This document shows positions 33,321 to 52,010 of a DNA stretch of 61,854 nucleotides, piece after piece. How positions within the stretch are numbered: the first letter of the stretch is position 1; every line of letters begins with the position of its first letter. The notes beneath the pieces are model-generated. The model was given only the letters and a program-made list of their open reading frames with translations. It was not told the origin of the DNA and made no database searches. This DNA comes from Myxococcota bacterium (lineage in GTDB: Bacteria; Myxococcota_A; Polyangia; HGW-17): assembly GCA_036802685.1 (NCBI GenBank), contig DAIRVS010000005.1, forward strand, positions 10,027 to 71,880, in the 5' to 3' direction. The position numbers were made by a program, and so were the translations under genes.

Positions 33321-33614
33321 TCAGAACGTGAAGTGCTGCTGGATGTCCGCCGCCATCTCGGAGTGGGACAGCACGGGGCGGTTCGCCTGGGGCGCGGTCG
33401 CGGCGGCGGAAACCTCGCCGGGATTGGCCGGTTCATATTCGTCCACGTAGGGCAGCGGGGGCTGCTCGTCCATCAGCGAGCCGTTGAGGAAGGAGGAGAT
33501 GCGGTTCTCCACGAAGGAGCTCATGCTGATGTTGTTCGATTCGCAATAATCGTGAATCCGGTCGTACAGTTCACCGCGGACAGAGATGGAACGACGAGTC
33601 TGCTGTTTGGCCAT
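33321..33614 (-). CDS. Ribbon-helix-helix (CopG/Arc-like) DNA-binding protein
   Basis: 97 aa. Alternating beta strand RRSISVRG followed by two helices ELYDRIHDYCESNNISMSSFVENRISSFL, then a disordered tail. Confidence 0.65.
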   Translation of the reverse strand: MAKQQTRRSISVRGELYDRIHDYCESNNISMSSFVENRISSFLNGSLMDEQPPLPYVDEYEPANPGEVSAAATAPQANRPVLSHSEMAADIQQHFTF

Positions 33615-33667
33615 GGGGATCATCAACCTTCCATTGAGTTGAATGGATGAGCGGCATCCATCCGAAA

Positions 33668-37289: not shown

Positions 37290-38597
37290 TCATCCCTCGA
37301 TGGTCTTGATGACCAGAGGTCCCGGGGTCGCGGGCGTGTCGCCGATGACGTAGGCGCCGGCGATGCGCGCGAGCGCGTCGTCCAGGCCGCGGTCGTCGTT
37401 GTAGTGCACCTCCACGAGGACGTCCCCCGCCGAGACCGTGTCTCCGATCTTCCGGCGCACGAAGAGGCTCACCCCGGGGTCCACGGGGTCGGTGACCTGC
37501 CGGCGGCCGGCGCCCAGGACCACGCCCGCCATGCCGATGGCGGTGGAGTTCAAGCTCTGCACCACGCCGGACCGATCGGCACGCACCGCTGTGGCGTGGG
37601 CGGCCTTCGCGAACAGGTCCGTACGCTCGACGGCCTCGGGGTTCCCGCCCTGGGCGGCGATCATCTCCTGGAACTTGCGGATGGCCGAGCCGTCGGCCAG
37701 CGCCCGCAGGCAGCGCTCGCGGGCCGAGGCGGGCTCCGGGGCCGCCCCGCCCAGGACGAGCATGTGGGAGGCCATCAGCAGCGTCAGTTCGCGGATGTCG
37801 GAGGGGCCGCCGCCGCGCAGCACGTCGATGCTCTCGATCACCTCGCAGGCGTTCCCCACCGCCTCGCCCAGGGGATCGTCCATCCGGGTCAGGAACGCGG
37901 TCACGCGCTTGCCCGCCCGGGCGCCGATCCCGACGAGGGTGCGGGCGAGCTCCTCGGCCTTCTGCTCGGTGGGCATGAAGGCGCCGGTGCCCACCTTGAC
38001 GTCGAGGACCAGGGCGTCGATACCCTCGGCGAGCTTCTTGCTCATGATGCTCGAAGCGATCAACGGAATCGAGGGGACGCAGCCGGTGGCATCCCGCAGC
38101 GAGTAGATCTTCCGGTCCGCCGGCGCGAGCTCCTCGGTCTGGCCGATCATGCACACCCCCACCTCCTCGACGATGCGGGCGTAGGCATCCAGGGGGAGGC
38201 GCACGGAGAAGCCCGGGATGGACTCGAGCTTGTCCAGGGTGCCGCCGGTGTGTCCGAGGCCGCGGCCCGAGACCATGGGGACGCGCACCCCGCAGGCGGC
38301 GACCAGGGGGGCCAGCGGGATGCTGATCTTGTCCCCCACGCCGCCGGTGCTGTGCTTGTCGACCTTGATTCCGGGGATGTGGGACAGATCCACCACCGTG
38401 CCGCTGTGCAGCATGGCGTTGGCGAACCAGCTCAACTCCTCGCCGTCGAGGCCGCGGATGAAGATGGCCATGATCAGCGCGGCCGCCTGGTAGTCGGGCA
38501 GGGCGCCGGAAGTGTAGGCGCCGATGAAGAAGTCGATCTCGGCCTGCGTAAGTCGCAGACCGTCACGTTTTTTAGAGATGATATCTTGAATCAGCAT
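37290..38597 (-). CDS. pdp: Pyrimidine-nucleoside/thymidine phosphorylase
   Basis: 435 aa. IISKKRDG, DYQAAALIMAI, VDKHSTGGVGDK, SGRGLGHTGGTLDKLESIPG, SIMSKKLAEG, LDVKVGTGAFM. Confidence 0.96.
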   Translation of the reverse strand: MLIQDIISKKRDGLRLTQAEIDFFIGAYTSGALPDYQAAALIMAIFIRGLDGEELSWFANAMLHSGTVVDLSHIPGIKVDKHSTGGVGDKISIPLAPLVAACGVRVPMVSGRGLGHTGGTLDKLESIPGFSVRLPLDAYARIVEEVGVCMIGQTEELAPADRKIYSLRDATGCVPSIPLIASSIMSKKLAEGIDALVLDVKVGTGAFMPTEQKAEELARTLVGIGARAGKRVTAFLTRMDDPLGEAVGNACEVIESIDVLRGGGPSDIRELTLLMASHMLVLGGAAPEPASARERCLRALADGSAIRKFQEMIAAQGGNPEAVERTDLFAKAAHATAVRADRSGVVQSLNSTAIGMAGVVLGAGRRQVTDPVDPGVSLFVRRKIGDTVSAGDVLVEVHYNDDRGLDDALARIAGAYVIGDTPATPGPLVIKTIEG

Positions 38598-38702
38598 GAG
38601 CGGCGCTCCTCCTCGCGCCTCTTGTAACGGAAAAGGCGGACCATGGAAAGCTGTTTGTCGGATCTGACGGGTCGGTCGGGTCCGGCCCTCCCAGAAAATG
38701 GT

Positions 38703-38787: not shown

Positions 38788-39591
38788 ATGAAAAAGTTGC
38801 GCGTCCTTCCCGTGTTTTTATTTTTGATTTTTGCTGCTTCCAACACGCTGGCCCAGACCGCCCCGACCACGCCGGAGCCGCCGAAGGATCCTGCGACCAC
38901 GACCCCCGCGCCGACCCCGGCCGCGCCCACGGTCGATCCCAAGGCGCCGGCCGTGCCCGTCACGGTGGGCACCGAAGGGGACCGCGACACGAACCCCTCG
39001 CCCGAGAAGGTGCAGGCCACCGAGGTAGCGAGCAACGAGCTCAAGTTGCGCCAGTTGGCCGAGTTGGTCGAGGATCTGAAGAACAAGGTCACGGCCACCA
39101 AGTTCCGCCTCCAGCTGCTCAAGGAGGCCATGACGGCCGAGAAGGAGACCCTCGGCGGCGCCCGGATAGTCCTCAAGCACGTCAACAAGATGGGCGGCGC
39201 CTTCAAGATGGTCCGGCTGCGCTACCTGATGGACGGCAAGCTCGTCGCGTCCTACAGCGACGCCGGTGAGAAGGACCGCGAGGTCCTGGCCAAGAAGGAG
39301 ATCTCCATCCCCGTCGGCCACGTCTCCCCCGGCAACATCCGTTTCCGGGTCTTTGTCACCTATCAGGGCAACGGTTACGGCGTCTTCAAGTACGTCAAGG
39401 AATGGAAGTGGGAGGTCCACAACACCTACTCGTTCAACGCCGAGCCCGGCAAGGACTACACCCTCGAGGTCCAGGGCGTGGAGAAGGGCGGCTGGACGAC
39501 TCCCCTCGACCAGCGGCCGCACATTCAGTTCCAGCTCCAGTCCAAGGCCCTGGTCACCAAGGAAGAGGCCAAGCCGGCCAAGACCAAGTGA
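38788..39591 (+). CDS. Secreted protein heading the TPR cluster (coiled segment plus beta-sandwich)
   Basis: 267 aa, signal peptide, Pro/Thr linker, helix ELKLRQLAELVEDLKNKV, then YQGNGYGVFKY...EKGGWTTPLDQRP. Resembles a conserved myxobacterial hypothetical family (from recall, not searched). Confidence 0.8.
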   Translation: MKKLRVLPVFLFLIFAASNTLAQTAPTTPEPPKDPATTTPAPTPAAPTVDPKAPAVPVTVGTEGDRDTNPSPEKVQATEVASNELKLRQLAELVEDLKNKVTATKFRLQLLKEAMTAEKETLGGARIVLKHVNKMGGAFKMVRLRYLMDGKLVASYSDAGEKDREVLAKKEISIPVGHVSPGNIRFRVFVTYQGNGYGVFKYVKEWKWEVHNTYSFNAEPGKDYTLEVQGVEKGGWTTPLDQRPHIQFQLQSKALVTKEEAKPAKTK

Positions 39592-39635
39592 CGACCCCGA
39601 CGGGCGCGCGCGCCCCGAGGCGAAGGATTCCGACC

Positions 39636-42314
39636 ATGAAAACACGCCTGTTCCTCCTGGCCTGTGTCACGTTTTTGCTGGTTCCCCACCTCGCGGGGGC
39701 CGATCCTCTGGACAAGGTGAACGACTCGGTGTCGGCGCTGGACTTCGCCCTCAAGCGGCTCGAGGGCGTCATCGCCTCGGCCACGAAGGTGCAGATGGCG
39801 AAGCAGCACGACGACATGCAGCGCTTCCTCAACGGCATCTACCTGCTCAAGAACGATCGTCCCCAGGACGCGGCCGCCCTGTTCCTCTCGCTGATCGACC
39901 ACGCCACCCTGGGCAAGGAGGCCACGTTCTACCTGAGCGAGGCCATGTTCCTGAGCGCGAACTACCAGGTGGCGTCCGATTACTACTGGATGGTCGTCGA
40001 ACAGCGCTGGGATCCCGCGTTCCGTTCCAAGGCCATCAAGCGCCTCCTCGAGATCTCCATCAAGACGCAGAACTACAAGGGTATCGAGAAGCTCGTCGAG
40101 CTCGTAGAGCAAATGCCCGAGTTGAAGGACTCCCCCGAGGTGAACTACGCCCGCGGGAAGTTCGCGTACTACCAGGCATACGAAGAGTTCCAGAAGCCCG
40201 CCGGGGAGCGCCGCGAGGCCTGGGCCCAGGACAAGTTCCTCGAGGCCCTGCGCTTCTTCGACCGGATCGTCCCAGGTCAGGACAAGGACGGCAAACGGAC
40301 CTTCCCCCAACTTTATCCCCAGGCCATCTATTTCTCCGGCGCGGTGCTGGTGCGCATGGCCCAGGTGGGCGCCACCTCCTTCGTGCGCGGAGGCAAGACC
40401 GTGAACCTGACCCAGTACACGACCTCCCTGGGTGAGATGCGCGAGATGCTCATGTTCGAGGCGGTGCGGCGGTTCTCGGTGCTCGCCTCCGATCAGTCCA
40501 TCCAGAAGTGGCTGCAGAAGGTGCCCGCCCAGTCCGGCGAGGCCGTCGAGGTCAAGTACTTCGAACCGCGCAACGACGATGAGAAAGAGGTCCAGGCGCT
40601 TGCCCGCATGGCCCTGGGCCGTATCTTCTACGAGCTCGGCGAGACCGGCGAGGCGGTCCGCTGGTACAAACTGATCGGCGACAAGTCCCCGCACTACGAG
40701 GACGCGCTGTACGAGATGGCCTGGGTGTACGTCCGCGAGGAGGAGGTCATGAAGGCCGCCGAGACGCTGGCCATCATGGAGGTCCGCAACCGCAACAGCG
40801 TGTTCCTGCCTCGCGCCCGCCTCCTGCTGGGGTACCTGCACGTGCGCGGCGAGAAGTGGGCCGACGCCAACCGTGCTTTCTCCGAGACCGCGTCGCGCTA
40901 CAAGGCCGTGCATCTGCAGATCCAGGAGCTCATGGAGAAGGAGCTCGACCTCAAGGCCTTCTTCGACCAGATCACGCGCAAGAAGGAGGAGAAGGCGGAA
41001 GCCGGCAAGGACGGAGGCAAGACCGTCTTCCGGCTGCAGTACGCCATCCCCCCCGAGGCGGTCCCCCTGTTCCAGGACGACCAGACGCTCATGAAGGCCG
41101 TGCTGGTCACCGAGGACATCACCGGCATCGGGCAGAACCTCGAGCACGCCCGGGACAGCCTGCTGATGATCAAGCGCCGGCTCCAGTCGGCCAGCAAGAT
41201 CGGCCTGTTCCCGCTCCTGGCCGACACCCGCACCAAGACCTACGAGATGGAGCTCAAGAACGTCGAGGCCCGCGCGGCCCTGCTCAAGGTCGCCCGGGAG
41301 CAGTTCGCCCGCCACGTGACCGGCAACGTGGTCACCCAGTTGAAGAAGGCCCAGGACGAGCGGCAAAAGCACGAGAAGACCTTGAGCGAGGTGCCCAAGA
41401 GCACCGACAGCGTGGCCACCCGCCTGGCGGCCAAGCGCAAGGTGTTCGACGAGAAGATCATGGCCGTGGACAACATGATCAAGGACCTGGAGGGCTACCG
41501 CCAGTTGGTCTCCGGCATGTACGAGTACTACCAGAAGCAGAAGCCCGAGCGTCAGAACCAGCTCAAGCCGCTGCTCACCCAGCTCCACGAGGAGGCCGCC
41601 GGCATCGAGGCGGGCCTCGAGATGGCCCGCCAGATCCGGGCGCGGATCCTCGACGCCAGCCTCACCGTGGGCGTGGACGACGCCGACATGGAGGCCGAGC
41701 GCCAGGTGCGTGTCCAGTACCGCGCCGCCATCGCCGCCGAGTTCGCCGTGTGGTCCAGCCTGCGCGGCCGGCTCTCCAACACGGAGATGGCCCTGTTCGA
41801 CCGGATGGTCACGATGATGCAGAACGCCGACGCCGTGGACCGTCGGCTCGACGACCTGAACAACCGGCTCCAGGCCATGGCCGACGAGCGTCTCACGAAG
41901 ATCAAGGAAGAGATCGCCGTGGAGGAGGCCAACCTCAAGGCCTACGAGGTCCAGTACCAGCAGTACAAGCAGCAGTCCGGGCAGATCAACGTCCTGATCA
42001 CCCGCGACAGCATCCGCCAGATCGCCCGCCATTTCCACGACGTGGTGGTGGAGTCCGATCTGGGCATCGTCGACGTGAACTGGTCGCTACGCTCCAAGAC
42101 ACGCATGGAGTACAACAAGCTCAACGACCGGAACAAGCAGATCACCAACGAGATGAGAAACCGGTACCGGGAGGTCGAGGAGCAACTGGTCGAGTTCGAG
42201 GATGAGCGGTATCAGGATCCGTTCGCCCCTCGGGTCGAACCGAAAGATGGCGAGAAGCCCGGCTCGGGCAAGACCGAGCCCGGCGCTCCCGGGACCGGAG
42301 GACAGCCCAAATGA
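39636..42314 (+). CDS. Secreted TPR and coiled-coil protein (GltC-like)
   Basis: 892 aa from the ATG with SD AAGGA. Signal peptide, TPR-like repeats (ALGRIFYELGETGEAVRWY, DALYEMAW), long C-terminal coiled coil ending in DLGIVDVNWS. Confidence 0.8.
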   Translation: MKTRLFLLACVTFLLVPHLAGADPLDKVNDSVSALDFALKRLEGVIASATKVQMAKQHDDMQRFLNGIYLLKNDRPQDAAALFLSLIDHATLGKEATFYLSEAMFLSANYQVASDYYWMVVEQRWDPAFRSKAIKRLLEISIKTQNYKGIEKLVELVEQMPELKDSPEVNYARGKFAYYQAYEEFQKPAGERREAWAQDKFLEALRFFDRIVPGQDKDGKRTFPQLYPQAIYFSGAVLVRMAQVGATSFVRGGKTVNLTQYTTSLGEMREMLMFEAVRRFSVLASDQSIQKWLQKVPAQSGEAVEVKYFEPRNDDEKEVQALARMALGRIFYELGETGEAVRWYKLIGDKSPHYEDALYEMAWVYVREEEVMKAAETLAIMEVRNRNSVFLPRARLLLGYLHVRGEKWADANRAFSETASRYKAVHLQIQELMEKELDLKAFFDQITRKKEEKAEAGKDGGKTVFRLQYAIPPEAVPLFQDDQTLMKAVLVTEDITGIGQNLEHARDSLLMIKRRLQSASKIGLFPLLADTRTKTYEMELKNVEARAALLKVAREQFARHVTGNVVTQLKKAQDERQKHEKTLSEVPKSTDSVATRLAAKRKVFDEKIMAVDNMIKDLEGYRQLVSGMYEYYQKQKPERQNQLKPLLTQLHEEAAGIEAGLEMARQIRARILDASLTVGVDDADMEAERQVRVQYRAAIAAEFAVWSSLRGRLSNTEMALFDRMVTMMQNADAVDRRLDDLNNRLQAMADERLTKIKEEIAVEEANLKAYEVQYQQYKQQSGQINVLITRDSIRQIARHFHDVVVESDLGIVDVNWSLRSKTRMEYNKLNDRNKQITNEMRNRYREVEEQLVEFEDERYQDPFAPRVEPKDGEKPGSGKTEPGAPGTGGQPK

Positions 42315-45300
42315 GACACCTTGCCCTGAGCCTGATCGCCTTCGCCTTTCCCCTGGTCCTGCCGGGCGCACTCCCGGCGCAGCAGCCCAAGCCCAAGCCG
42401 GCCGAGGCCGACATGACGCCCCCGAAGGCCCCCGCGCCCGAGCCCGTGGAGCGGCCCGAGGTCCAGAAAGAGATCGACCAGCTCCGCCGGGACTACAATT
42501 TATATAAGGAAGGAGTCGTCCGGTTCGCGGAGACGACGGATTATATGGTGAAGCGCATGAAGAGCAACGAGGAGATGTTCCTGCGCGCCCAGGTGGACCG
42601 CGACAGCCGCGCCGCCAAGGCCAAGGACATCGTCGAGCGCGCCAAGTTGCTCCAGTTGCTCGAGCAACGCCTGGTTCAATACGAAAAGAACCCCGACCCG
42701 ACCTGGACCCCCGAGTTGCTCTGGCGCACGGCGGTCATCTATCAGGAGATCGCCGAGGAACTGAACACTTTTTACATCAACCAGGACGAGAAGACCGGCA
42801 AGGACGTCTACGAGGAAGAATACCAGCAGATCATGGCCAAGGCCCGCGAGCTGGCCAAGGGCACGGTGCGGCCGGCCGAGGCCGATCTGGGCATGGAGTT
42901 CTACCACAAGAAGGCCGAGGGCAATCTCCGCAAGCTCGTGGAGCAGTATCCGAAGTTCCGGGACATCGGCTCGGTGCTGCACCTGCTGGCCCGCATGTAC
43001 GAGCGCCCGCCGTTCTCCCTCGACGACGAGGAGGGCGTCATGCCCGCCAAGCTCTCCATCGCGTCGGTCTGCGCCAACTGGGGGTTCTCCCCGTTCCGGG
43101 ACAACCTCAAGGCCTTCCTCGTGAAGAAGGGCCTCGAGACCATGCCTCTCTCGGCGATGAACGAATACGAGAAGTGGACGATCTCCGATTTTCCCGCCCA
43201 CCTGCCGTTCGATCCGTTCGCCTCCTGCCGGCCCATCCAGGGAAACGTGGAGTTTCTCGGCACCGCCTGGGCCACCCTGGGCAAGTATTTGTCCGCCTCC
43301 GATTACCGCCTGCAGTTCCTGGCCGCCGAGACCACCGACCAGGACAAGTTGTACAACCTCGCCATGACCAAGTGGTACAGCTTGTCGGCCTACAAGCAGG
43401 CCCTGGGGCCCGAGTTCCGCACGCTCTCCACCCGGGGCTACGTGGTCTACTTCGCCGGCCTGATGATGTACCAGAACGAGACCAATCCGGCCCTGACGAT
43501 GAAACTGCTGGATCTGGTCGTCGCTCTGGGCCAGAACCTGGACGAGAACAGTCCGCATGAAGCGGCCATAAAATATATTGGATTTTTGTTGCAGGAAGAA
43601 AAATTTGTCATGGGATCTGAGAGCGATCCCAACAAGGCCTTCAGTTGGACGGCGCCGTTCCCCGTCACCTGCCAGGACAAGTGTCCGGTCAAGAAACTGG
43701 TCGCCTTCTACAAGAACCGCGACGCCGAACCCCACGTGAAGCGCATCTGGAAGGGTGTGGCCGACTTCTTCATGGGGTTCGAGGAGAACAAGACCTACCA
43801 GCGGTCCGAGGCGGACTATGCCTTCGCCTACGAGTTGTACGATTACGTCTTCCGCAAGATGGACGTCGAGGGCGGCTGGCGCTACAACCCCGACAAACCC
43901 ACGATTTTCTGGAACATGATCTCCTTGATCGAGATGCGCATCAAGGGGGTCGAGCGGGAGATCGGCGAGGTGAAGTCCGAGCGTGACAAGAACGTGCTGC
44001 GTGAGAGCCTGCGCACGTGGCAGGACAAGAAGCGCGAGTTGTACGAGTTCGCCGTGAACAAGGTGTTCACCAACGACGAGGTCCAGGAGTACCTGGCCTA
44101 CCACCAGCGCTTCCTGGTCGAGAACCAGAAGAAGAACGTCCGCCTGCGCACCGTCTCCATCGACAAACTGCGGGAGGATCTCCTCGGCATCCGCACGTTC
44201 GCCCTCATCGACACGGGCCAGGCGATGATCAAGAAGGCGGCCCAGCTCGGGGATGCCGCCAAGGCCGCCACGGGCGCCGAGAAGACCCAGTTGTCCAAGA
44301 AGGCCCTCGAGGAGTTCCAGAAGGTCGTGGCCTATTACCAGGGTATCATCCGCGACTTCCCCAACTCCTCGCTGCAGTACGACGCCTCGTACATGATCCT
44401 GTTCGTCTACCGCGACTACATCATCGATCTCTCGGAGTCGGACGCCGCGCGCAAGGAGGCCATCATGGCGACCCTGGACTGGGGTCGCAAGGTGCGCGAC
44501 TCCCATCTGGGCAGCAAGTACCAGAAGGAGAGCGCGGCCATCATCTACGAGGTCTACGACAAGAAACTGGACCTCAAGATCCCGCCGCCGCCTTTTGACA
44601 TCAAGGAAGAGGAGAAGTTGATCAAGTACGCGGCGAAGGAGCTGGCCCCGGACTTCAAGAACTACGTTCAGGACGCCTTCGAATACATGAAGATCTACCC
44701 CAAAAGCGACAACGCACCGATCTTCATCAACAACATCGCCAACATCTACCTGCACTACGAGCAGATCACCGAGGCCCGCAAGTACTATTGGCAGATCCTC
44801 GAGGCCTATTGCTCCCACTCCGTGGCGATCAACGCCTCGCAGATGCTCTTTCTCACGTACAAGTTCCAGCAGGCCGAGCCCGGCACCGAGGCCACCTTCA
44901 CGGCCGAGCGGGACGCCGCGATCAAGAAGCTCGAGAAGAACAAGTGCGGCGGCGACAAGGAACACCGCGAGTTGATGTTCATGATCACCGCGCTGGAGTT
45001 CAAGGAGCTGGTCAAGAAGGCCGAGGTCGTGTTCGCCGAGGCCGAGAAGGCCAAGGCCGACGGCAAGAACGATCCCAAGAAGTGGCGCGAGGCGCTGCTC
45101 ATGTTCCGCCAGCTCGAGGTCCAGATGAAGGACCGCCGGCCCGACGACAAGGACGCCAACAAGCTCAAGGAGTTCGAGTCCAACCTCTTCGGTGTGTACT
45201 GGAAGATCTACACCTGCACCAAGGAGCTGGGGGACTATCCGGGGGCCATCGAGGTCCTGAACAAGAAGATCTACGAGGACGAGACCGGCAAGATGATGGC

Positions 45301-47341
45301 CAACGCCCACCAGGATGGCCTGAAGGAGTTCCTGATCTACGAGCTCGCCGAGGCGGCCACGAAGTTCTTCATGGAGGACCTGGCCATGAAGATGTGGCAG
45401 GAGCTGACGGTGGTCAAGCCGGGCGGCTGGCGCATCAAGAAAGAGAAGAAGATCGAGGTCAAGGACGAGAGCTCCTATCGCGTCCTCGCCGAGGAGCGGC
45501 TGTTCTGGATCTACAAGAACGGCGGACCCAAGTTGCACGGCAAGGCGCTGACCCAGGCGGACCGGCTGCTCGAGCTCTTCCGCAAGGCCAAGAAGATGTA
45601 CAACAAGGAGTTCGAGGTCTCCGAGGCGGCCCTGCTCAAGGAGCTCGCCCAGAAAATGGGCGTCACCGAGGACGCCGCTCAGAACTACTACAGCGTCTCG
45701 AGCATCTGCGAGGGCGGCCGCTGCAAGGTCATGGTCTCCGACAAGGTCCTCTATTACACCGACGTGGTCTTCAACATGGAGCAGGACCGGATCGCCCAGA
45801 AAGGCGACAACGAGGCCGCCTTCCGCGACATGCTCACCAAGATCGAGGCCTACGAGGCGTTCCTCGACGGCTACGTGCCGCTCGCCAAGGTCAAGACCAA
45901 GGAGAACGAGGGCATGTGGAAGGTCCGCATGGATCTCCTCTATCGCAAGGCCGGCCTGTGGGGGCAGATCCAGGCCGCGCTGGCCAAGAGCCCGGACAAG
46001 GCGAAGAAGGCGGGCGAGGAGTACGCGCGCCTCATCCAGGAGTACAACGATCTGTACGACCAGGGCACCAAGGCCGGCCTGGAGCCGGGCATCCACGTCA
46101 TCAACCGCGGCAAGGCCATCGTGCAGTTCGCCGAGAGCAGCCTGGTGAAGACCTTCGAGAACCCCTTCAAGGAGAAGTCCACCACCGAGATCGACAACTT
46201 CGAGAAGATCAAGGTCGCCTATGATTTGTGGCAGAAGCAGCTTCAGGGCAAGGGCGAGGATCTGCAGAAGCGCGGGACCCAACTCCAGGAGGAACTGCAG
46301 AAAAAGCAGGCGGAGTGTCTCGCCGAGATTCAGGAGCTGCTCAACGCGCTGCAGAAGATCCAGCAGTATCAGGCGAACAACGCTTCCGTGCCCCCCAAGG
46401 AGTTGACCGCGGCGGTGAACACGTACCAGACGCTGAACAAGAAGTACCCCAACTTCATCAAGGATCTGCAGGCCCTCGGAGACGTGAACAAGGCGGTCAC
46501 CAAGACCATCACCGAGCGCAAGGACATCGCCGCGCTGATCAAGGAACTGACGGCGCTCTCGGAGGCCGGCCAGAAGATGGGCCCCGAGAACATCAAGAAG
46601 TACATCAAGGAGCAGCTGCCGTTGGCCACCAAGGCCCTGGCCGCCGTCAAGAAGCGCTTCTCCGGCAAGAACATCCCCGAGATCGCCCAGAGCGAGACCA
46701 TCCTGAAGGGCATCAAAGCCGACTCCACGGACATCAACGACATCGGCAAGCTCCTCCAGGTCATGAAGATCCTCGCCTGGCTGAGCGTGCTGCAGCCGGC
46801 CACCGACACGGTCACGTCCATGCTGCAGAACGGTCGTTCCATGGACAACCTGGCGCGCAACTACGACTTCTTCAAGAACTACAAGGGGTCCCTTCGCCAG
46901 CAGGTGGCGGTTCTCAAGGGGGAGCTGCTCGCCCTCAAGTTGCGGCTGCTCTACCGCGGGATCAAGGCCTTCTCCGAGGCGCCGTTCACGAGCATGATCG
47001 CCCGGGAGGACCTGAAGAACCCCGCCGAGGTCGCCAAGTCGGGGTGCACGCAGACCAAGGCCGACGAGTTGGAAGATTGCTACCTGGCCTACCGCCGGAA
47101 GACCTACTACGAAAGCACGTACCGCGTCACCCTCGATGGCCAGAGCCAGGACCTGGCGATCATCCCCCAGGACCGGCTCACCGACGAGTACAACCAGACC
47201 TTCACCGCGTTCTACGAACTGGTCGAGGCCGAGAAACTGTCCACCGCGAACATCGAGGAGGCCCTGGCCGAGTACCGGGACTTCACGAAGAAGAAGCTGC
47301 GCCGCTCGTATCAACCCGAGGTGGAGCCGCTGTCCCGCTAG
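42311..47341 (+). CDS. Very large secreted TPR-like helical protein (GltD/AgmU-like)
   Basis: 1676 aa, signal peptide, overlaps the upstream stop (ATGA), all-helical with TPR-like segments. Placed upstream of a TPR lipoprotein and a GltF-like gene, as in gltD-gltE-gltF. Confidence 0.78.
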   Translation: MRHLALSLIAFAFPLVLPGALPAQQPKPKPAEADMTPPKAPAPEPVERPEVQKEIDQLRRDYNLYKEGVVRFAETTDYMVKRMKSNEEMFLRAQVDRDSRAAKAKDIVERAKLLQLLEQRLVQYEKNPDPTWTPELLWRTAVIYQEIAEELNTFYINQDEKTGKDVYEEEYQQIMAKARELAKGTVRPAEADLGMEFYHKKAEGNLRKLVEQYPKFRDIGSVLHLLARMYERPPFSLDDEEGVMPAKLSIASVCANWGFSPFRDNLKAFLVKKGLETMPLSAMNEYEKWTISDFPAHLPFDPFASCRPIQGNVEFLGTAWATLGKYLSASDYRLQFLAAETTDQDKLYNLAMTKWYSLSAYKQALGPEFRTLSTRGYVVYFAGLMMYQNETNPALTMKLLDLVVALGQNLDENSPHEAAIKYIGFLLQEEKFVMGSESDPNKAFSWTAPFPVTCQDKCPVKKLVAFYKNRDAEPHVKRIWKGVADFFMGFEENKTYQRSEADYAFAYELYDYVFRKMDVEGGWRYNPDKPTIFWNMISLIEMRIKGVEREIGEVKSERDKNVLRESLRTWQDKKRELYEFAVNKVFTNDEVQEYLAYHQRFLVENQKKNVRLRTVSIDKLREDLLGIRTFALIDTGQAMIKKAAQLGDAAKAATGAEKTQLSKKALEEFQKVVAYYQGIIRDFPNSSLQYDASYMILFVYRDYIIDLSESDAARKEAIMATLDWGRKVRDSHLGSKYQKESAAIIYEVYDKKLDLKIPPPPFDIKEEEKLIKYAAKELAPDFKNYVQDAFEYMKIYPKSDNAPIFINNIANIYLHYEQITEARKYYWQILEAYCSHSVAINASQMLFLTYKFQQAEPGTEATFTAERDAAIKKLEKNKCGGDKEHRELMFMITALEFKELVKKAEVVFAEAEKAKADGKNDPKKWREALLMFRQLEVQMKDRRPDDKDANKLKEFESNLFGVYWKIYTCTKELGDYPGAIEVLNKKIYEDETGKMMANAHQDGLKEFLIYELAEAATKFFMEDLAMKMWQELTVVKPGGWRIKKEKKIEVKDESSYRVLAEERLFWIYKNGGPKLHGKALTQADRLLELFRKAKKMYNKEFEVSEAALLKELAQKMGVTEDAAQNYYSVSSICEGGRCKVMVSDKVLYYTDVVFNMEQDRIAQKGDNEAAFRDMLTKIEAYEAFLDGYVPLAKVKTKENEGMWKVRMDLLYRKAGLWGQIQAALAKSPDKAKKAGEEYARLIQEYNDLYDQGTKAGLEPGIHVINRGKAIVQFAESSLVKTFENPFKEKSTTEIDNFEKIKVAYDLWQKQLQGKGEDLQKRGTQLQEELQKKQAECLAEIQELLNALQKIQQYQANNASVPPKELTAAVNTYQTLNKKYPNFIKDLQALGDVNKAVTKTITERKDIAALIKELTALSEAGQKMGPENIKKYIKEQLPLATKALAAVKKRFSGKNIPEIAQSETILKGIKADSTDINDIGKLLQVMKILAWLSVLQPATDTVTSMLQNGRSMDNLARNYDFFKNYKGSLRQQVAVLKGELLALKLRLLYRGIKAFSEAPFTSMIAREDLKNPAEVAKSGCTQTKADELEDCYLAYRRKTYYESTYRVTLDGQSQDLAIIPQDRLTDEYNQTFTAFYELVEAEKLSTANIEEALAEYRDFTKKKLRRSYQPEVEPLSR

Positions 47342-47358
47342 CGAAGAGAGGTTCGATC

Positions 47359-48522
47359 ATGAAGTGCTCCTCGAGGACGTTGCGTTTGGCCGTGACCCTG
47401 CTGTGGATCGTGTTGTCCATGGCGCTGGTCGCGGGCTGTTCGAAGAAGAAGAAGACCACCACCGCCACGAAGGATCCGGCCGCCGACAAGAAGGAGGCGT
47501 CCGCCTCGAAAGACGAGGCGGACAGCAAGGGCCAGGACACGAGCCCGGACACCACGCCCGACGGGGCCAAGGATGGCGACACGAGTCCCGACGCCACATC
47601 GGACACCCCGGCGGCGGACCCGAAGACCGACGCGGACGGGAAGCCGACGGATCCGAAGACCGATGCCCCCGCCCCGCCCCCCAAGGAGCAGTCCGAGGCC
47701 GAGAAGCTGCGGGGCAAGGTGCTCCAGGCGGAGCAGCTCGCGGCGAAGAAGACCGACGAGGCCTACAAGGAGGCGCTGGCGCTGATCACCGAGATCCTCA
47801 AGCAGGACTTCGCCAACTTCGATGCGCTCCTGGTGATGGCGACGATCCACTATCAGCAGGAGAACCTCGAGAAGATGCGCTCGGTGCTGGACTACATCCT
47901 GGGTCTGCACAAGAAGAACAACCCGCCCACCGAGCCCGGGCCGCAGTGGCAGTACATGATGGGCAAGTATTATCTCTTCCTCGCCGACAACGCCGAGACC
48001 AAGGGCATGAACATCAGCGCGATTTCTTATCGCAGCCAGGCCGAGAAGTACTTCGGCCATCCCAGCGCGGCCAGCCACCCCGAGGCGCAGTTCGCCCTGG
48101 GCGTGCTGCTGCTCGAGCGCGGCGAGCTCGATCTGGCCATCCCCGCCCTCGAGAAGGCCGAACGCCTCGGAGCCGGGAACGTGCTCAAGAAGGAGTGGCG
48201 GCTGCCGCTGAACCTGGGCGCGGCCTATCTAATGCAAAAGAAGGCCGACGCCGCCCTGACCAAGTTCGAATACGCGCTGACCCTCAACAAGAGCTGCGAG
48301 CGGTGCCACTACAACCTGGCGCTGCTCTTCGTCAGCGTCGAGGAGTTCCCGCAGGTGGGCAAGTACACCGACAAAGAGCGCGCCGACAAGGTCCTCCTGC
48401 ACGCCAAGGCCTACAACGAGTTCCTGAAGAAGAAGAAAAACGTGGACCGCGCGCTGCAGATCCGCATCGACGCGTGGCTCGAACTGGCCAGGGAGCGCCA
48501 GGCCGCGAAAGGATCCAAGTAA
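47359..48522 (+). CDS. TPR lipoprotein (GltE/AglT-like)
   Basis: 387 aa from MKCSSRTL..., lipobox VAGC, Asp/Thr/Pro linker, TPR repeats (AQFALGVLLLERGELDLAIPALEKA, CHYNLALLF). Confidence 0.8.
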   Translation: MKCSSRTLRLAVTLLWIVLSMALVAGCSKKKKTTTATKDPAADKKEASASKDEADSKGQDTSPDTTPDGAKDGDTSPDATSDTPAADPKTDADGKPTDPKTDAPAPPPKEQSEAEKLRGKVLQAEQLAAKKTDEAYKEALALITEILKQDFANFDALLVMATIHYQQENLEKMRSVLDYILGLHKKNNPPTEPGPQWQYMMGKYYLFLADNAETKGMNISAISYRSQAEKYFGHPSAASHPEAQFALGVLLLERGELDLAIPALEKAERLGAGNVLKKEWRLPLNLGAAYLMQKKADAALTKFEYALTLNKSCERCHYNLALLFVSVEEFPQVGKYTDKERADKVLLHAKAYNEFLKKKKNVDRALQIRIDAWLELARERQAAKGSK

Positions 48523-48770
48523 TGAGAATCATTCATCTTTTTCCATTGGTTGTCCTCGCCTGCGCGTGGCTCGCCCCCGTCCCCGCCCAGGGACAGGATC
48601 CCAAGACCGGCGGTGGAGATGTCCTCGAGGTCCAGATCCCGCGTCCGAAGTTCGAGATCTTCAAGGCCTGGGAGTATGGCGGCTTCTGGCGCTGGGATGA
48701 AAAAGATCCTCGTTTTTACCGGGATTTCCTGAAGAAGATCCACGATTCCCTCGCCACGGGGCCTTTCTGA
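48522..48770 (+). CDS. Small secreted GltF-like protein
   Basis: 82 aa, ATG overlaps the upstream TAA, signal peptide. Ends RDFLKKIHDSLATGPF, like the ...F-x-x-K-I-x-x-S-x-x-x-x-P-F end of small Glt-cluster proteins. Occupies the gltF position. Confidence 0.6.
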   Translation: MRIIHLFPLVVLACAWLAPVPAQGQDPKTGGGDVLEVQIPRPKFEIFKAWEYGGFWRWDEKDPRFYRDFLKKIHDSLATGPF

Positions 48771-48870
48771 TCAAATGCGCAGATTTTCCTTTCCCAAGAG
48801 GATTGAAATACGTTATAAATGCGAGCGCCCGGAGGTTGGGGTCCGGACGTTTTTGAGGAACAGCTGAAAT

Positions 48871-48898
48871 TTGATTGCTTTTTTCGAAAGGTTTTAAT
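48871..48898 (+). promoter_or_regulatory. Putative promoter of the motor operon
   Basis: TTGATT-N16-TTTAAT in an AT-rich intergenic region upstream of SD GGAGGA and the ATG at 48950. Confidence 0.4.
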
Positions 48899-48949
48899 AG
48901 GTTCGTCTCACTTTAACCGGGCTTGAGTGCCCTACCGGAGGATACGGAA

Positions 48950-49585
48950 ATGAGTGGTCTTGCAAAGGCATTTGTTGACGGCGGCGAGTTCATGTATGTC
49001 ATTCTGTTTGCGTCGGCATTTGGTATCGCCATCATCATCGAGCGGTCCATCTTCCTTCTGTTCCGCTACAACATCAACGCGGAAGCCTTCATGAGCCAGG
49101 TCATGCAGCTCGTCGGGTCGAACAACATCGACCAGGCGATCAAGCTCTGCAACGCCGCCCCCACGGCCGCGCTGCCCCGCGTCATCAAGGCCGGCCTCAC
49201 CAAGTACGGTGACGGCGCCGCCGCCGTGTCCGCCGCGATCGAGGAAGCCAAGCTCGAGATCGCCCCCGAGGTCACCCGCCGCACCCCGGCCCTGCAGGGC
49301 GTCGCCAACATCGCGACCCTGGTCGGTCTGCTCGGAACCATCATGGGCATGATTCAGGCGTTCGACGCCCTCGGCACGGCCACCCCCGAAAACCGCTCCG
49401 CGGTTCTGTCGCACGGCATCGCCGTCGCCATGAACACCACGGCCTTCGGTCTGATCGTCGCGGTGCCCTGCCTGACCGCGCACCTGCTGCTGACGGGCTT
49501 CACCAAGAAGATCATCGACGACGTGGAACTGTACTCCACGAAGCTGGACAACCTGCTGTCCCGGCGCCTGACCCGCGCCCGCTAG
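48950..49585 (+). CDS. MotA/TolQ/ExbB proton-channel family protein (AglR-like)
   Basis: 211 aa, three TMs. ATLVGLLGTIMGMIQAF, GIAVAMNTTAFGLIVAVP. Confidence 0.92.
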   Translation: MSGLAKAFVDGGEFMYVILFASAFGIAIIIERSIFLLFRYNINAEAFMSQVMQLVGSNNIDQAIKLCNAAPTAALPRVIKAGLTKYGDGAAAVSAAIEEAKLEIAPEVTRRTPALQGVANIATLVGLLGTIMGMIQAFDALGTATPENRSAVLSHGIAVAMNTTAFGLIVAVPCLTAHLLLTGFTKKIIDDVELYSTKLDNLLSRRLTRAR

Positions 49586-49689
49586 TGGGGGTTTCCAGTC
49601 GTTCGTCCACCGGCTGGCGACCCAATAGGGTCGCTTGACCGTCGGATGATAACGGGTTCGATGAACCGCAAGGATCGAGGAGTCCTGTC

Positions 49690-50349
49690 ATGGCAAGAAA
49701 GAAGATGGCTGTTGACGAAAGTTTGCGAGATCTGGACTTGATGCCGATCATGAATCTGCTCTGCCTGCTGATTCCCTTCTTGCTGCTGAGCGCCCAATTC
49801 ATTCAGATCGGTATCGTCCTGGTCGACACGCCCCGCCAGTCGAGGAATCAGACCCAGAAGAAAGATGACACGCAGAAGGTCCTGGGCCTGACAATCAACA
49901 TCAAGCAGGACGGCTACGACATCACCACCAAGAGTGGCGGTTCGGCCTGCCCGCAGCGCGCGGCCTCCAACCAGGTCTGCATCCCGGTCACCCATGCCGG
50001 CGGCAAGAAGGTCTACAACGCCGTGGCCCTGCGCAAGTTCCTGTACGACAAGTTCTACAAGCCCCATTACAAGAACAACACGCTCGACGCGAGCAAGGAT
50101 GCGGCCAAGCCGGCCGGCTCCTTCTCCGACTGGGGCAAGGTCACGATCGTCCCCGAGGACACCATCCTGTACGAGACGGTCATCGAGACCCTCGACGCGA
50201 CGCGTGAGCTTCCGCCCGAGGCCAAGAACGAGATCCAGGACGTCAAGGGCGGCACACTCGCCTGTGTCTTCAAGAAGAAGCCCGGCGACAAGGAATGGCA
50301 GCTCGAAGGCAATTGCATGTTCCCCCTCGTGGCAGTGGGTCGTCTCTAA
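49690..50349 (+). CDS. ExbD/TolR family protein (AglQ position)
   Basis: 219 aa. TM motif DLMPIMNLLCLLIPFLL, periplasmic VTIVPEDTILYETVIETLDATR. Confidence 0.85.
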   Translation: MARKKMAVDESLRDLDLMPIMNLLCLLIPFLLLSAQFIQIGIVLVDTPRQSRNQTQKKDDTQKVLGLTINIKQDGYDITTKSGGSACPQRAASNQVCIPVTHAGGKKVYNAVALRKFLYDKFYKPHYKNNTLDASKDAAKPAGSFSDWGKVTIVPEDTILYETVIETLDATRELPPEAKNEIQDVKGGTLACVFKKKPGDKEWQLEGNCMFPLVAVGRL

Positions 50350-50361
50350 AGGAGTGCGCAC

Positions 50362-50916
50362 ATGGTTGATGTGAAAACCAACGAACAGTTGCTGGAAGAC
50401 GAACTTCCGCCGAAAAAGAAAAAGGGCCCATGGACTCCGGGCGACAACCCGTTGACCATCACCTCCCTCATGGACGCGCTCACCATCATCCTGATCTTCC
50501 TGCTCAAGAGCTACGGGTCCGACCCGATGCAGGTCCCGCAGAAGAAGAACGAACTGATGGTTCCGAAGTCCGACACCATGAGCAACATGGTCGAGTGCGT
50601 CGACATCCAGATCTCCCGCACCACCATCGTGGTCAAGGGTAAAAAGGTCGTCGTCGTGACCAATGGTACGGTGTCCTCCTCCGACACCCCCGACGGCTTC
50701 ACGATCAAGGCCCTCAAGGACTCCCTGGATGAGATCGCCCGCAAGGAGATCGAGGACAAGGGTGGTCAGACGACCATCCAGAACTTCCAGGGTGAGGCCT
50801 TCATCGCCGCGGACACGAGCATCCCCTGGAAGCTGGTGAACCAGGTCATGATGACCTGCACTCGCGCCAAGTACACGCGGTTCAGTTTCGCCGTCGTCAA
50901 GACCCGCGGCGGCTGA
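50362..50916 (+). CDS. ExbD/TolR family protein (AglS-like)
   Basis: 184 aa. TM motif ITSLMDALTIILIFLLKSY, C-terminal IAADTSIPWKLVNQVMMTC. Confidence 0.88.
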   Translation: MVDVKTNEQLLEDELPPKKKKGPWTPGDNPLTITSLMDALTIILIFLLKSYGSDPMQVPQKKNELMVPKSDTMSNMVECVDIQISRTTIVVKGKKVVVVTNGTVSSSDTPDGFTIKALKDSLDEIARKEIEDKGGQTTIQNFQGEAFIAADTSIPWKLVNQVMMTCTRAKYTRFSFAVVKTRGG

Positions 50917-50987: not shown

Positions 50988-51030
50988 TTCGATTTCGATT
51001 TCGATTTCGATTTCGATTTCGACTGGGACT
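50988..51030. repeat. Hexamer tract (TTCGAT)5, i.e. (TCGAAA)n on the - strand
   Basis: Lies between the convergent aglS-like gene and recR. Confidence 0.9.
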
Positions 51031-51036: not shown

Positions 51037-51648
51037 TCAGTGACGGAGCTCGCGCTTGAGCGTGAAGGCGTGGGAGAGGGTGATGCCGTCGGTATACTCG
51101 AGCTCGCCACCGAAGGGAAGACCGGCGGCGAGCCGGTGGACGCGGATATGCCGGGGCAAAAGCTCGAGTAGATACTGGGCGGTGTAGTCCGCGTCGGCGA
51201 CGGCGTCGAAGGCCAGGATGACCTCGGTGATGCGTTCGGTGTCCACGCGGGCGACGAGGGAGTCCACGCGCAGGTCCTCGGGGAAGACCTGGTTGAGCGG
51301 CGAGATGTAGCCGCCAAGCACGTGGTAGCGGCCGTGGAAGATGGCGGCCTCCTCGATGGCCAGGACGTCCTGGATACGCCCCACCACGCAGAGTTGGCCG
51401 GGTTGCCGGTGGGGGGAGGCGCACAGCGCGCAGCTCTCCTGTGGCCGGGAGAAGAAGCCGCAGGTGGGGCAGTGGGCGAGCTCGGCCTGGAGGCGTCCCA
51501 GGGCCAGGTGAAGCTGGCGTGCCTTCTCGGGGGGCGCGTCGACGAGGTGGAAAGCCAGGCGCCGGGCGGTCTTGGCGCCGATGCCCGGCAAAGTGGAGAA
51601 CGCGGCCACGAGATCGGAGATGGCGGTGGGTAGAAGGGGAGCGCTCAT
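51037..51648 (-). CDS. recR: Recombination mediator RecR
   Basis: LPGIGAKTARRLAF, zinc finger CPTCG...CALC, YHVLGGYISPL, RLAAGLPFGGELEYTDGITL. Confidence 0.96.
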   Translation of the reverse strand: MSAPLLPTAISDLVAAFSTLPGIGAKTARRLAFHLVDAPPEKARQLHLALGRLQAELAHCPTCGFFSRPQESCALCASPHRQPGQLCVVGRIQDVLAIEEAAIFHGRYHVLGGYISPLNQVFPEDLRVDSLVARVDTERITEVILAFDAVADADYTAQYLLELLPRHIRVHRLAAGLPFGGELEYTDGITLSHAFTLKRELRH

Positions 51649-51655
51649 GGTGGAC

Positions 51656-51997
51656 TCAGAACAGCGGATTGTTCTGTAAGAAGGAGGCCATGGGACCGAG
51701 CTCCTCGGCAGCGATGGCCTGGGCTTTCTCGCGGCAGCGGTCGATCACCAGATTGAAGCAGGCGGCGACGAGATCCTCGGTCATCTCCCGATCCTGCAGA
51801 TCCATCAGGCTGGGGCTGAGGGTGACCCGGCGAATCCGCATGTTGGCGGTGGCCTCGATGGTGACCATGCCGCCGCCGGTCTCGGCGATGACGGTTTCGG
51901 AGGCGGTGCGCTGTTGCATCTTTTCCAGTTTGGCCGGGAGCTCGTTGAGGCCCGGCAGGAACGAGCCAAGGGCGGAGAAGTCCATCGGTGTCGGCAT
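51656..51997 (-). CDS. ybaB: YbaB/EbfC nucleoid-associated protein
   Basis: 113 aa. ETGGGMVTIEA, DREMTEDLVAACFN. Lies between dnaX and recR. Confidence 0.93.
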   Translation of the reverse strand: MPTPMDFSALGSFLPGLNELPAKLEKMQQRTASETVIAETGGGMVTIEATANMRIRRVTLSPSLMDLQDREMTEDLVAACFNLVIDRCREKAQAIAAEELGPMASFLQNNPLF

Positions 51998-52010
51998 GGG
52001 TCCCTCGTGT

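Follow-up and report, generated by a model that had tools for sequence, protein, structure and literature searches.

An eight-gene envelope locus of an uncultured Myxococcota clade with the layout of a G4-type Glt-like core complex and a built-in motor

The locus considered here is a run of eight genes, A to H, at positions 38788-50916 of a stretch of DNA from a Myxococcota bacterium (contig DAIRVS010000005.1); this whole stretch of 61,854 nucleotides (62 kb) is referred to as the window. All eight open reading frames (ORFs) lie on the + strand, and with a G+C content at third codon positions (GC3) of 0.85-0.92 they are of the coding type. In the window as a whole, which has a G+C content of ~65%, GC3 told real genes from many spurious ORFs. 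The window is 62 kb of its source genome, and the absences of partner genes given below refer to the window or, for relatives, to the locus that was scanned. The genes, in which TPR stands for tetratricopeptide repeat, are as follows:

38788-39591, + strand: A, 267 aa, signal peptide
39636-42314, + strand: B, 892 aa, signal peptide, N-terminal TPR region and long coiled coil
42311-47341, + strand: C, 1676 aa, signal peptide
47359-48522, + strand: D, 387 aa, lipobox LVAG|C, TPR
48522-48770, + strand: E, 82 aa, signal peptide
48950-49585, + strand: F, 211 aa, PF01618 MotA_ExbB (84.6 bits)
49690-50349, + strand: G, 219 aa, PF02472 ExbD (31.5 bits)
50362-50916, + strand: H, 184 aa, PF02472 ExbD (33.9 bits)

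In the sequence itself, B and C share an ATGA overlap at 42311-42314 and D and E a TAATG overlap at 48520-48524; E and F are 179 nt apart. The operon is flanked by a thymidine phosphorylase gene (37290-38690, - strand) on one side and by recR-ybaB-dnaX (51037-53789, - strand) on the other. Full-length homologues of C numbered 13 among 5.8 billion proteins, all of them from metagenome-assembled genomes (MAGs) of uncultured Myxococcota or "Deltaproteobacteria", and a genome scan with F delimited a clade of 13 species-level genomes in which all eight genes are retained. These genomes are labelled HGW-Deltaproteobacteria-22 and -17, Kofleriaceae, Haliangium, Polyangia and Polyangiaceae, although taxonomic labels of MAGs are unreliable. 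Since the identical eight-gene order, together with both flanks, is kept in relatives in which C is just 41-45% identical, the run is far beyond what chance would give. Within the clade, identity is 91-99% for F (78% in the basal member L013), 58-91% for G, 62-86% for H and 41-83% for C (27% in L013). This pattern of sequence conservation indicates that selection maintains A-H as a functional unit resembling an operon, and that its most constrained part is the channel subunit F. Two minor observations belong here. In L013, a Polyangiaceae MAG and the most basal clade member, a tandem G-H-G-H follows a single F at 10876-13476, and in the window a (TTCGAT)x5.8 array occupies positions 50988-51022 in the spacer between the convergent H and recR genes.

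We compared the three motor proteins with both the Agl and the Tol/Exb families. F was 50-52% identical over 203 aa (E 6e-74) to the AglR orthologues of Citreicoccus, Archangium and Anaeromyxobacter, and identities were 25-26% between G and AglQ orthologues and 26-30% between H and AglS orthologues. In a neighbour-joining (NJ) tree, AglR was monophyletic (100) and nested inside the F family, and AglR and the F family together stood apart from E. coli TolQ and ExbB and from three other ExbB-like proteins in 92 of 100 bootstraps. On the NCBIfam models F reached 66 bits for TolQ (cut-off 221) and 36 bits for ExbB (cut-off 206), the ExbD_2 model gave 18 bits against a cut-off of 123, and the TolR model was matched by neither G nor H; the motor proteins stayed below threshold on every TolQ, TolR, ExbB and ExbD equivalog model. 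The best solved-structure matches were TolQ and ExbB, and a sequence search of the PDB with G and H returned no match. No gene for TolA, TolB, Pal, TonB or a TonB-dependent receptor is adjacent to the operon. Because F is ~50% identical to AglR and falls with it into one clade that excludes TolQ and ExbB, we regard the F-G-H motor as Agl-like. An exhaustive phmmer search with F against 1.84 billion representatives gave 132 matches below 1e-30, and a scan with the top and another high-scoring representative led to stand-alone three-gene loci of Myxococcaceae, Archangiaceae and Anaeromyxobacter. Their proteins of 224-247, ~160-175 and 194 aa have the sizes of AglR, AglQ and AglS (for reference, MXAN_6862 has 245 and MXAN_6860 194 aa, and the three proteins have 246/160/195 aa in Stigmatella and 224/162/194 aa in Anaeromyxobacter), and residue 28 of the middle gene's product is an Asp, in agreement with published AglQ.

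The joining of such a motor to scaffold genes has a published precedent. Luciano et al. (2011, PMC3169522) termed gltC, gltD, gltE and gltG plus aglR, aglQ and aglS a "core complex" of unknown function, and reported it in one locus with one extra gene in Geobacter, in gamma- and betaproteobacteria and in Fibrobacter. In Geobacter sp. M21 the order of GM21_0438-0445 is GltC(626)-GltD(1090)-GltE(272)-[0441]-AglR(211)-AglQ(166)-AglS(165)-GltG(505), with protein sizes in brackets, and in Bdellovibrio the genes Bd0413-0420 and Bd0828-0838 likewise join agl and glt genes (PMC3169522). The window locus has the same B-C-D-small gene-F-G-H order as this Geobacter locus (Group B), and protein sizes are similar, the AglR homologue having 211 aa like F. 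It lacks the terminal gltG and carries the extra first gene A, and 7 of 8 positions match when judged from the published tables.

Two genome scans with F yielded 93 loci, in all of which ORFs were called (in relatives, as the longest ORFs), and iterative hidden Markov models (HMMs) were built for each window protein and for each neighbour gene that recurred in relatives. Because TPR profiles drift, we relied on synteny, on HMMs made from the clade alone and on hhalign. A profile of the typical C protein retrieved 495 proteins, one of which came from Archangium violaceum, and its sequences were used for the comparison with the G4 cluster of M. xanthus, for which, as for Geobacter, published tables were taken (PMC3169522). 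The Archangium locus is:

5720-19558 of CP069396 (locus L094): Archangium violaceum G4 locus, module with mglBA and Wza

Its order is recR...mglB(159)-mglA(195)-A(259)-B(788)-C(1113)-D(475)-E'(88)-tail(451)-cNMP(149)-X(180)-barrel(425)-Wza(205), where E' is the small peptide of modules outside the window clade and cNMP a protein binding cyclic nucleotide monophosphates. In M. xanthus, MglA is MXAN_1925, MglB MXAN_1926, WzaB MXAN_1915 and WzpB MXAN_1916, and since mglBA and wzpB/wzaB bound the block, the twelve Archangium genes map one-to-one onto MXAN_1926-1915. MXAN_1923, 1922, 1921, 1920 and 1919 have 809, 1111, 490, 91 and 447 aa (Table S3, PMC3169522) and match B, C, D, E' and tail. In that table the "Homolog to" column for MXAN_1919-1923 is reversed relative to gene sizes and main text, the latter giving MXAN_1922 as the gltD homologue of G4 (PMC3169522). 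The Archangium Wza-like protein scored 244 bits against the crystal structure of M. xanthus WzaB (9N9A), and the Wza protein of a Nannocystaceae module 187 bits. As judged from gene order and profiles, window genes A-E and the G4 Glt paralogue set (MXAN_1924-1920) are orthologous and syntenic.

The window locus and G4 (MXAN_1919-1923/1924) thus share the A-E order of exported TPR and coiled-coil proteins, with recR nearby in both. They differ in that G4 of Myxococcaceae has no motor genes inside, whereas F-G-H follow E in the window, and in that further genes follow the scaffold in G4, for a non-FHA transducer of 447 aa, a protein that binds cNMP, a coiled-coil protein, WzpB and WzaB, none of which the window has. 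Moreover, C has 1676 aa as against 1111 aa in G4 and D 387 aa as against 490 aa, and the mglBA genes upstream of G4 (MXAN_1926/1925) are missing from the window cluster. A polar MXAN_1922 mutant glides normally, which is the sole published G4 phenotype (PMC3169522). WzaB and WzpB export the biosurfactant polysaccharide (BPS) of M. xanthus, and the papers on BPS and on polysaccharide exporters of the outer membrane (OPX proteins) call wzaB orphan-like and leave its Glt-like neighbours unmentioned. M. xanthus has just one other Agl-like set, M2 (MXAN_3003-3005), which is needed neither for motility nor for sporulation (PMC3858216); it is an obvious candidate for a detached G4 motor.

Among the scaffold proteins, the product of the operon's first gene, A, at the position of MXAN_1924, combines a linker rich in Pro and Thr, a single long helix and a beta-rich domain at the C terminus; its single-sequence AlphaFold2 (AF2) model was poor (pLDDT, the predicted local distance difference test score, of 46) and was read for secondary structure only. 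No Pfam or NCBIfam family matched A. Homologues lay upstream of B in 40 of 94 loci, and an HMM of the A family, made by iteration over all loci, matched the Archangium gene that lies between mglA and the B-like gene with 229 bits. B is of the GltC type (MXAN_1923 type), with a coiled coil of ~450 aa after its N-terminal TPR region, and matched the NCBIfam model gliding_GltC over residues 48-459 (E 4.3e-11, 42 bits, cut-off 450). A clade-only B HMM found syntenic B proteins elsewhere with E-values as good as 1e-68, and gave 232 bits on the Archangium G4 gene. Across the families, the GltC model was matched by 17 of 21 B members and the GltE model by 17 of 22 D members (best 1.3e-41); window D had no gliding_GltE match, and by our count the five non-matching D proteins were the five clade members scanned. 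No GltD match appeared in the NCBIfam scan, in a library for which the presence of a GltD model is unconfirmed. D occupies the GltE position in a shorter and diverged form (387 aa against typically 480-570 aa), with TPR_16, TPR_1 and TPR_19 above cut-off. The clade-only D HMM found 25 syntenic D proteins with E-values of 5e-8 to 0.8, plus one B-type ORF, and it matched Archangium D with E 2e-10 and 30 bits.

E, which like A falls into no curated family, stands at the GltF position (MXAN_1920 type), ends in ...SLATGPF and is kept in all 14 clade loci that cover the position. Aligned by hhalign with the small ORF after D in 39 other loci (...KSVEKEPF-COOH), it gave a probability of 67% (E 5e-5, 44 columns), and the alignment reaches the C terminus, with a shared ending ...S(V/L)xxxPF. 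On these profiles it is plausible that E is homologous to the typical small GltF-like peptide. C, for which there is no curated family either, scored 18 bits on one TPR model only, and its helical-repeat nature is proposed because of profile-profile homology to a TPR-rich family. Clade C and typical C proteins (1100-1240 aa) were aligned by hhalign with a probability of 99.8% (E 1.9e-28, 733 columns), and residues ~54-1050 correspond to a diverged GltD homologue of the MXAN_1922 type. The clade-only C HMM found one syntenic C outside the clade (4e-7), and matched the Archangium C (1113 aa) with E 3.7e-11 and 31 bits.

The remainder of C, residues 1050-1676 (627 aa), had no hhalign match, and is kept in all 13 homologues. 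AF2 with a 13-sequence alignment predicted it as all helix, with helices of up to 64 residues (pLDDT 86.3), and a Foldseek search of the PDB with this model gave a best E of 0.05 at a TM-score of ~0.1, which is no meaningful match. As modelled, the 627-aa end of C appears to be a lineage-specific helical region with no detectable relatives in sequence or fold. A likeness by eye between the extreme C terminus of C and that of typical C proteins was dropped, as hhalign did not support it.

Outside the clade, the full module order A-B-C-D-E'-F-G-H-tail-X-barrel-Wza, or the same without F-G-H, was found in ~100 loci, including those of Myxococcota (Nannocystaceae, Bradymonadales and others) and of a group of rumen and sediment MAGs labelled Spirochaetales, UBP6 or Sumerlaeota, as well as loci of other lineages, and MAGs of KSB1, Calditrichota and Zhuqueibacterota had B-C(~1450-1550 aa)-F-G-H-tail. 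The tail protein is a non-FHA protein of ~460 aa with a conserved N-terminal domain (KILRIGIIQNGKIIEERL...), one transmembrane (TM) segment and an AgmX/PglI (TonB-like) C-terminal domain, and on the NCBIfam models myxo_SS_tail and GltG it reached 97.6 and 169 bits. X is a secreted coiled-coil protein, the barrel a ~450-aa outer-membrane beta-barrel of the WzpB-like porin type with 18 strands, and Wza a ~205-aa Poly_export/SLBB lipoprotein. X, the WzpB-like barrel and the WzaB-like Wza were present in nearly all non-clade loci with a sufficiently long flank; loci with this OPX linkage include L031, L032, L036, L037, L042-L063, L097-L175 and the Archangium locus L094, and in Cystobacterineae the module stands right behind mglBA. 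A scan on the N-terminal tail motif KILRIGIIQNGK matched 119 genomes, and 79 loci were annotated from the best 80 of these 119. The motor was in place (...D-E'-F-G-H-tail-X-barrel-Wza) in 37 loci and missing (...D-E'-tail-X-barrel-Wza) in 40, and two were too short.

The window clade was the sole group with the motor and with none of tail, X, barrel and Wza at the locus. In all clade loci the tail is missing after H, where recR or unrelated genes stand instead; tail, X, barrel and Wza had no match in the window, and none of the 13 clade assemblies was among the best 80 of 119 tail-motif matches. Since the window clade nests among lineages with the full set in the NJ tree of F, its lack of tail, X, barrel and Wza would be a derived loss or relocation. 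The order of scaffold plus motor is ancestral and already published, and what is specific to the clade is the missing transducer and export block and the extension of C. These results bear on an earlier, sequence-only reading of the window. Its description of an operon-like run with overlapping genes, followed by ExbB-ExbD-ExbD, was reproduced in coordinates, overlaps and families, and its view of the system as Agl-Glt-like, not generic Tol/Exb, agrees with the grouping of F with AglR far under the TolQ and ExbB cut-offs. Its assignment of the TPR proteins to the Glt type holds for B, which matches GltC, and for the families, which match GltC and GltE, but does not extend to a GltE match of window D. 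The arrangement that it had called rearranged and distinct is neither, with TPR core and motor contiguous in ~75 loci of several phyla and the order published in 2011 (PMC3169522); that publication describes the contiguity and not a locus with the transducer missing.

A feature of the motor itself separates G4-type modules from AglRQS. Asn22 of G aligned with TolR Asp23, ExbD Asp25 and AglQ Asp28, while H keeps a transmembrane Asp38. Among the G-type subunits of 90 G4-type modules, the residue at this plug position was Asn in 83, Ser in four, Ala in two, Gly in one and Asp in none, and H-type subunits had the Asp in 116 of 117 cases. At AglRQS-type loci, by comparison, the Asp was present in all 74 AglQ and all 69 AglS proteins. 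In the aligned sequences, this Asn/Asp dichotomy sets G4-type motors apart from AglRQS-type motors across phyla. In M. xanthus, the D28N substitution of AglQ abolishes proton conductance and function (PMC3858216). Because G carries this very Asn and the same change is lethal to AglQ, the G4-type motor would have one protonatable plug subunit, or G would have another role.

The motor genes may also be set apart in their expression. The relevant region is:

48771-48949, + strand: E-F intergenic region, with conserved boxes, hairpin and leader

It contains a conserved AT-rich box (AAATACGTTATAAAT) and, immediately before the start codon of F, a conserved leader TTTAACCGG...GCCC..CGGAGGA. These boxes were invariant in an alignment of 10 clade loci, including members in which C is 41-45% identical. 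A hairpin with a T-run lies at 48829-48855, and its pairing is kept through base changes in close relatives; the terminator-like match at 48829-48846 is weak, as the scan gave 21 sites where 12.2 were expected. No sigma-70 promoter above chance was found in a scan of the operon locus. Because the boxes before F are invariant across the clade, the alignment suggests that F-G-H may have a promoter or leader of their own.

We next consider the better-known relatives of this system. The AglRQS-Glt machinery of M. xanthus (M1 plus G1 plus G2) shares with the window the motor family, a paralogous scaffold of the GltC/D/E/F type and TonB-like genes of the GltG/GltJ type; it differs in AglQ Asp28 against Asn22 of window G and in the spread of agl and glt genes over three loci. 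NCBIfam Glt scores of the window proteins were far below the equivalog cut-offs (GltC 42 of 450, GltG 259 of 650, GltJ 102 of 450). The closest functional parallel to G4-type modules linked to WzaB and WzpB is the Agl-Nfs spore-coat machinery (Wartel et al. 2013, PMC3858216), a set of Glt paralogues that serves a Wza-exported polysaccharide instead of motility. It borrows AglRQS and uses the FHA-type NfsG and the outer-membrane proteins NfsA, NfsB and NfsC, whereas the window module has a motor of its own. With Tol-Pal and ExbB-ExbD-TonB, finally, the module shares the superfamily of 5:2-type ion-driven stators and, in its relatives, a TonB/TolA-like partner, whereas the window has two different ExbD-type subunits, one of them with Asp, and no TolB, Pal or TonB-dependent receptors.

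Further genes of Glt type lie at some distance from the operon in the same window:

4421-4669, - strand: secreted 82-aa peptide, candidate trans partner, not an established member
2225-4345, - strand: GltG1, FHA-containing GltG-like protein, 706 aa; GltG 258.6 bits (cut-off 650), AgmX/PglI 82.9 bits (cut-off 40)
101-1747, - strand: GltG2, FHA-less tandem paralogue, 548 aa; GltG 93.7 bits (cut-off 650), AgmX/PglI 75.8 bits (cut-off 40)
19737-21470, - strand: GltJ-like protein with Zn_ribbon_4, GYF_2 and a C-terminal TonB-like tail; GltJ 102 bits (cut-off 450)
10563-18101: pilM/N/O and pilQ, between the GltG-like and GltJ-like genes

The C-terminal domains of GltG1 and GltG2 are 80% identical, and GltG2 is a recent FHA-less duplicate. 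GltG1 is built like GltG, NfsG and MXAN_1330 (G1/G3/G5 type), with an FHA-TM-domain-TM-linker-tail layout, and not like the G4-type transducer, and the FHA-type genes may belong to another partial Glt set, comparable to Hoch_5625-5628 of Haliangium (PMC3169522). A search with the window GltG-like protein as query returned only close relatives. The GltJ-like gene adjoins a sigma-54 activator gene and pilM, and is likewise a candidate partner, not an established member. The peptide at 4421-4669 was considered as a paralogue of E and rejected (hhalign probability 8%). Around the GltG-like pair there are several tandem repeats, perfect or near-perfect, at 1-72 (17 nt x4.2), 1868-2007 (57 nt x2.5, 100% identical) and 2044-2196 (66 nt x2.3), located downstream of the GltG2 gene (101-1747) and in the spacer that separates it from the GltG1 gene. 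The pilQ secretin gene (10563-14906) is unusually long; in its 1447-aa product a single AMIN domain is separated by ~900 residues without a family match from the N0, secretin-N and secretin domains, all of which fall within the last 430 residues.

The sequence-only reading had placed GltG, GltG' and GltJ-like genes 17-38 kb away, flanking pilMNOPQ, and these positions were borne out. The physical clustering with type IV pili that it drew from them is unsupported, because purMN, a kinase gene, pil genes, regulators, ftsAZ and a sigma factor gene fill the distance between the GltG-like genes and the operon, and because a relative with a C 44% identical has different genes upstream of thymidine phosphorylase. 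Nor do the GltG genes qualify as transducers placed elsewhere: they are of the FHA type and not the short non-FHA transducer of the module, and nothing links them to the F-G-H motor. The same reading had recognised no GltA/B/H-like barrel, GltI or CglB in the window, and in this it agrees with our family scans: among the ~40 ORFs scanned over the 62 kb (with Pfam, a subset also with NCBIfam, in a scan that was not exhaustive) there was no GltA/B/H/K, CglB or GltI and no beta-barrel, OmpA-like, VWA (CglB-like) or giant cytoplasmic TPR (GltI-like) protein.

Altogether, there is good support for the view that the locus is the form which the G4-type core complex takes in this lineage, with a motor built in. 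We give a probability of about 60% to a fuller account, in which this Glt-like complex, driven by its own proton-motive force (PMF) motor, ancestrally served the handling of envelope polysaccharide, probably not gliding, and in which the output of the window clade is supplied in trans or has changed. By analogy with TolQR, ExbBD and AglRQS, F would form an inner-membrane channel ring, and G and H would be its single-pass plug subunits. The stator would probably contain a G/H pair with one proton-binding site (H D38), or else G would be a non-conducting structural subunit. The exported proteins A, B and C, the lipoprotein D and the peptide E would make up a periplasmic scaffold of helical repeats and coiled coils on which the motor acts, with PMF-driven movement passed by F-G/H into the periplasm. 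In the clade, the exporter and transducer output would be supplied in trans or would be changed, possibly via the novel C-terminal end of C.

Judged by gene linkage, the complex would ancestrally most likely have powered the handling of a secreted polysaccharide at the cell envelope, in the way that Agl-Nfs acts for the spore coat. A polysaccharide role is proposed because a WzpB-like porin and a WzaB-like class-3 OPX protein stand at the end of the module in ~100 loci. Agrebi et al., in an opinion article of 2015, reportedly derived these machines from a capsule-assembly system. The two characterised paralogues, Glt and Nfs, both act on secreted polysaccharides (PMC3858216).

Several points weigh against this account. 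The only published phenotype of G4-type clusters is the absence of a motility defect, and the polysaccharide role may not transfer to the window clade, because it is derived from a gene neighbourhood that the clade does not have. Transducer and OPX genes could sit elsewhere in the genome, or an FHA-type GltG could serve the motor. The Asn at the plug position could also mean a non-canonical motor or a stoichiometry different from the one assumed. The homology of clade C, D and E is weak at the sequence level and leans on synteny and profiles. Finally, the tail-motif scan demands an exact 10-residue pattern, so that divergent members are missed, and its results cover the best 80 of 119 matches; the trees are NJ trees, that of F and AglR being based on ~196 columns with 100 bootstraps.

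Two more far-reaching proposals, to which we jointly attach a rather low probability, go beyond this account. In the first, the clade would have been re-plumbed: it would have kept its own Asn/Asp motor, shed the transducer and the WzpB/WzaB exit and gained the helical module of C, with a different target for the force, possibly reached via the FHA-type GltG pair and the GltJ-like protein near the pil genes. The second does not depend on the clade, and holds that the core complex of 2011 was ancestrally the energised partner of polysaccharide secretion through class-3 OPX proteins and beta-barrels.

It seems unlikely to us that the locus is a gliding or surface-motility variant of Agl-Glt, with its transducers beside the pil genes and the two motility systems genetically coupled. 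The ~50% identity of F to AglR and the presence of GltG-like and GltJ-like genes within the same 62 kb would fit such a variant, as would the recurrence of GltJ-like genes near the module in L011 and L012 (6-8 kb downstream of H) and in L047, L049 and L051. Control of polarity by MglA is plausible as well, because the module comes directly after mglBA in Archangium, L035 and L038 and directly after mglA in L147, L149 and L164. However, the orthologues of A-E are those of G4, whose gltD-homologue mutant glides normally (PMC3169522), and G is without the Asp that is essential in AglQ. No GltA/B/H/K, GltI or CglB emerged from the window scans, all Glt model scores lie far under the equivalog cut-offs, and the FHA-type GltG is of another paralogue class. 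In M. xanthus, moreover, the non-Agl channel protein MXAN_3003 binds neither GltG nor NfsG (PMC3858216), and in the window it is housekeeping genes that fill the distance to the pil genes.

Equally doubtful is a rewired module in which the enlarged C links the motor to the outer membrane, the peptidoglycan or another machine. For the C-terminal region of C the model is of high confidence (pLDDT 86), and this region is without relatives in sequence or fold and is conserved in 13 of 13 homologues, and the same clade has a shortened D and a diverged E, with all eight genes intact and F strongly constrained. Yet all of this is correlation, periplasmic scaffolds commonly have long helical extensions, and the missing genes may sit elsewhere in the genome. 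A decaying remnant that lost its function with its transducer and exporter is very improbable: the partner genes are missing at the locus and C, D and E are strongly diverged, as decay would have it, but the eight ORFs are intact in 13 species-level genomes with translational coupling kept, the identities of F, G and H remain as high as given above, G-H is even duplicated in L013, and the leader upstream of F is conserved. Least credible of all is the idea that a Tol-Pal or ExbBD-TonB system of the generic sort, serving envelope integrity or TonB-dependent uptake, came to lie beside TPR proteins by chance, since the Pfam MotA_ExbB and ExbD matches, the TolQ and ExbB structures as best hits and weak YbgF/CpoB-like TPR matches in B and C are set against scores far under the TolQ and ExbB cut-offs, no adjacent Tol, Pal or TonB genes, two ExbD-type genes of which one has Asn, the clustering of F with AglR apart from E. 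coli TolQ and ExbB, and the conserved synteny of the module.

The G4-type core complex with its own motor, our preferred account, matters on several counts. The function of the core complex has been open since 2011, and G4 and M2 of M. xanthus are without a phenotype. The linkage of G4-type modules with WzpB/WzaB across several phyla predicts a polysaccharide role that is testable in M. xanthus. A natural D-to-N change in the AglQ-equivalent subunit amounts to a natural experiment on the two plug aspartates of 5:2 stators. In the window clade, the module persists under strong constraint with no transducer or exporter at the locus, and would represent a minimal motor-plus-scaffold unit with a novel 627-aa domain; if the re-plumbing proposed above were true, a Glt-like motor would have acquired a new output. 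Should the ordinary reading hold, the locus would be one more arrangement of a known modular family. The most useful leads are the OPX linkage that runs through the family and the plug subunit in which Asn naturally replaces Asp.

Some features elsewhere in the window were recorded in passing. The ORF at 7523-8959 joins a purN-type formyltransferase and a 2-thiouracil desulfurase domain and overlaps the purM ORF by 226 nt; because of this overlap its start is probably further downstream, or it represents two genes. A (TCGAAA)x5.3 array at 22482-22514 lies upstream of a gene for an FG-GAP protein. Between ftsZ and the gene of the sigma-70 family, three consecutive ORFs of 101, 366 and 255 aa (31404-33626, - strand) matched no Pfam or NCBIfam family. 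At 55318-56358 a 346-aa protein with acidic double-disulfide repeats is encoded (NF033662, 165 bits, six stretches), with 96-nt repeats in its DNA, and the next gene encodes a 707-aa protein with a rhomboid domain.

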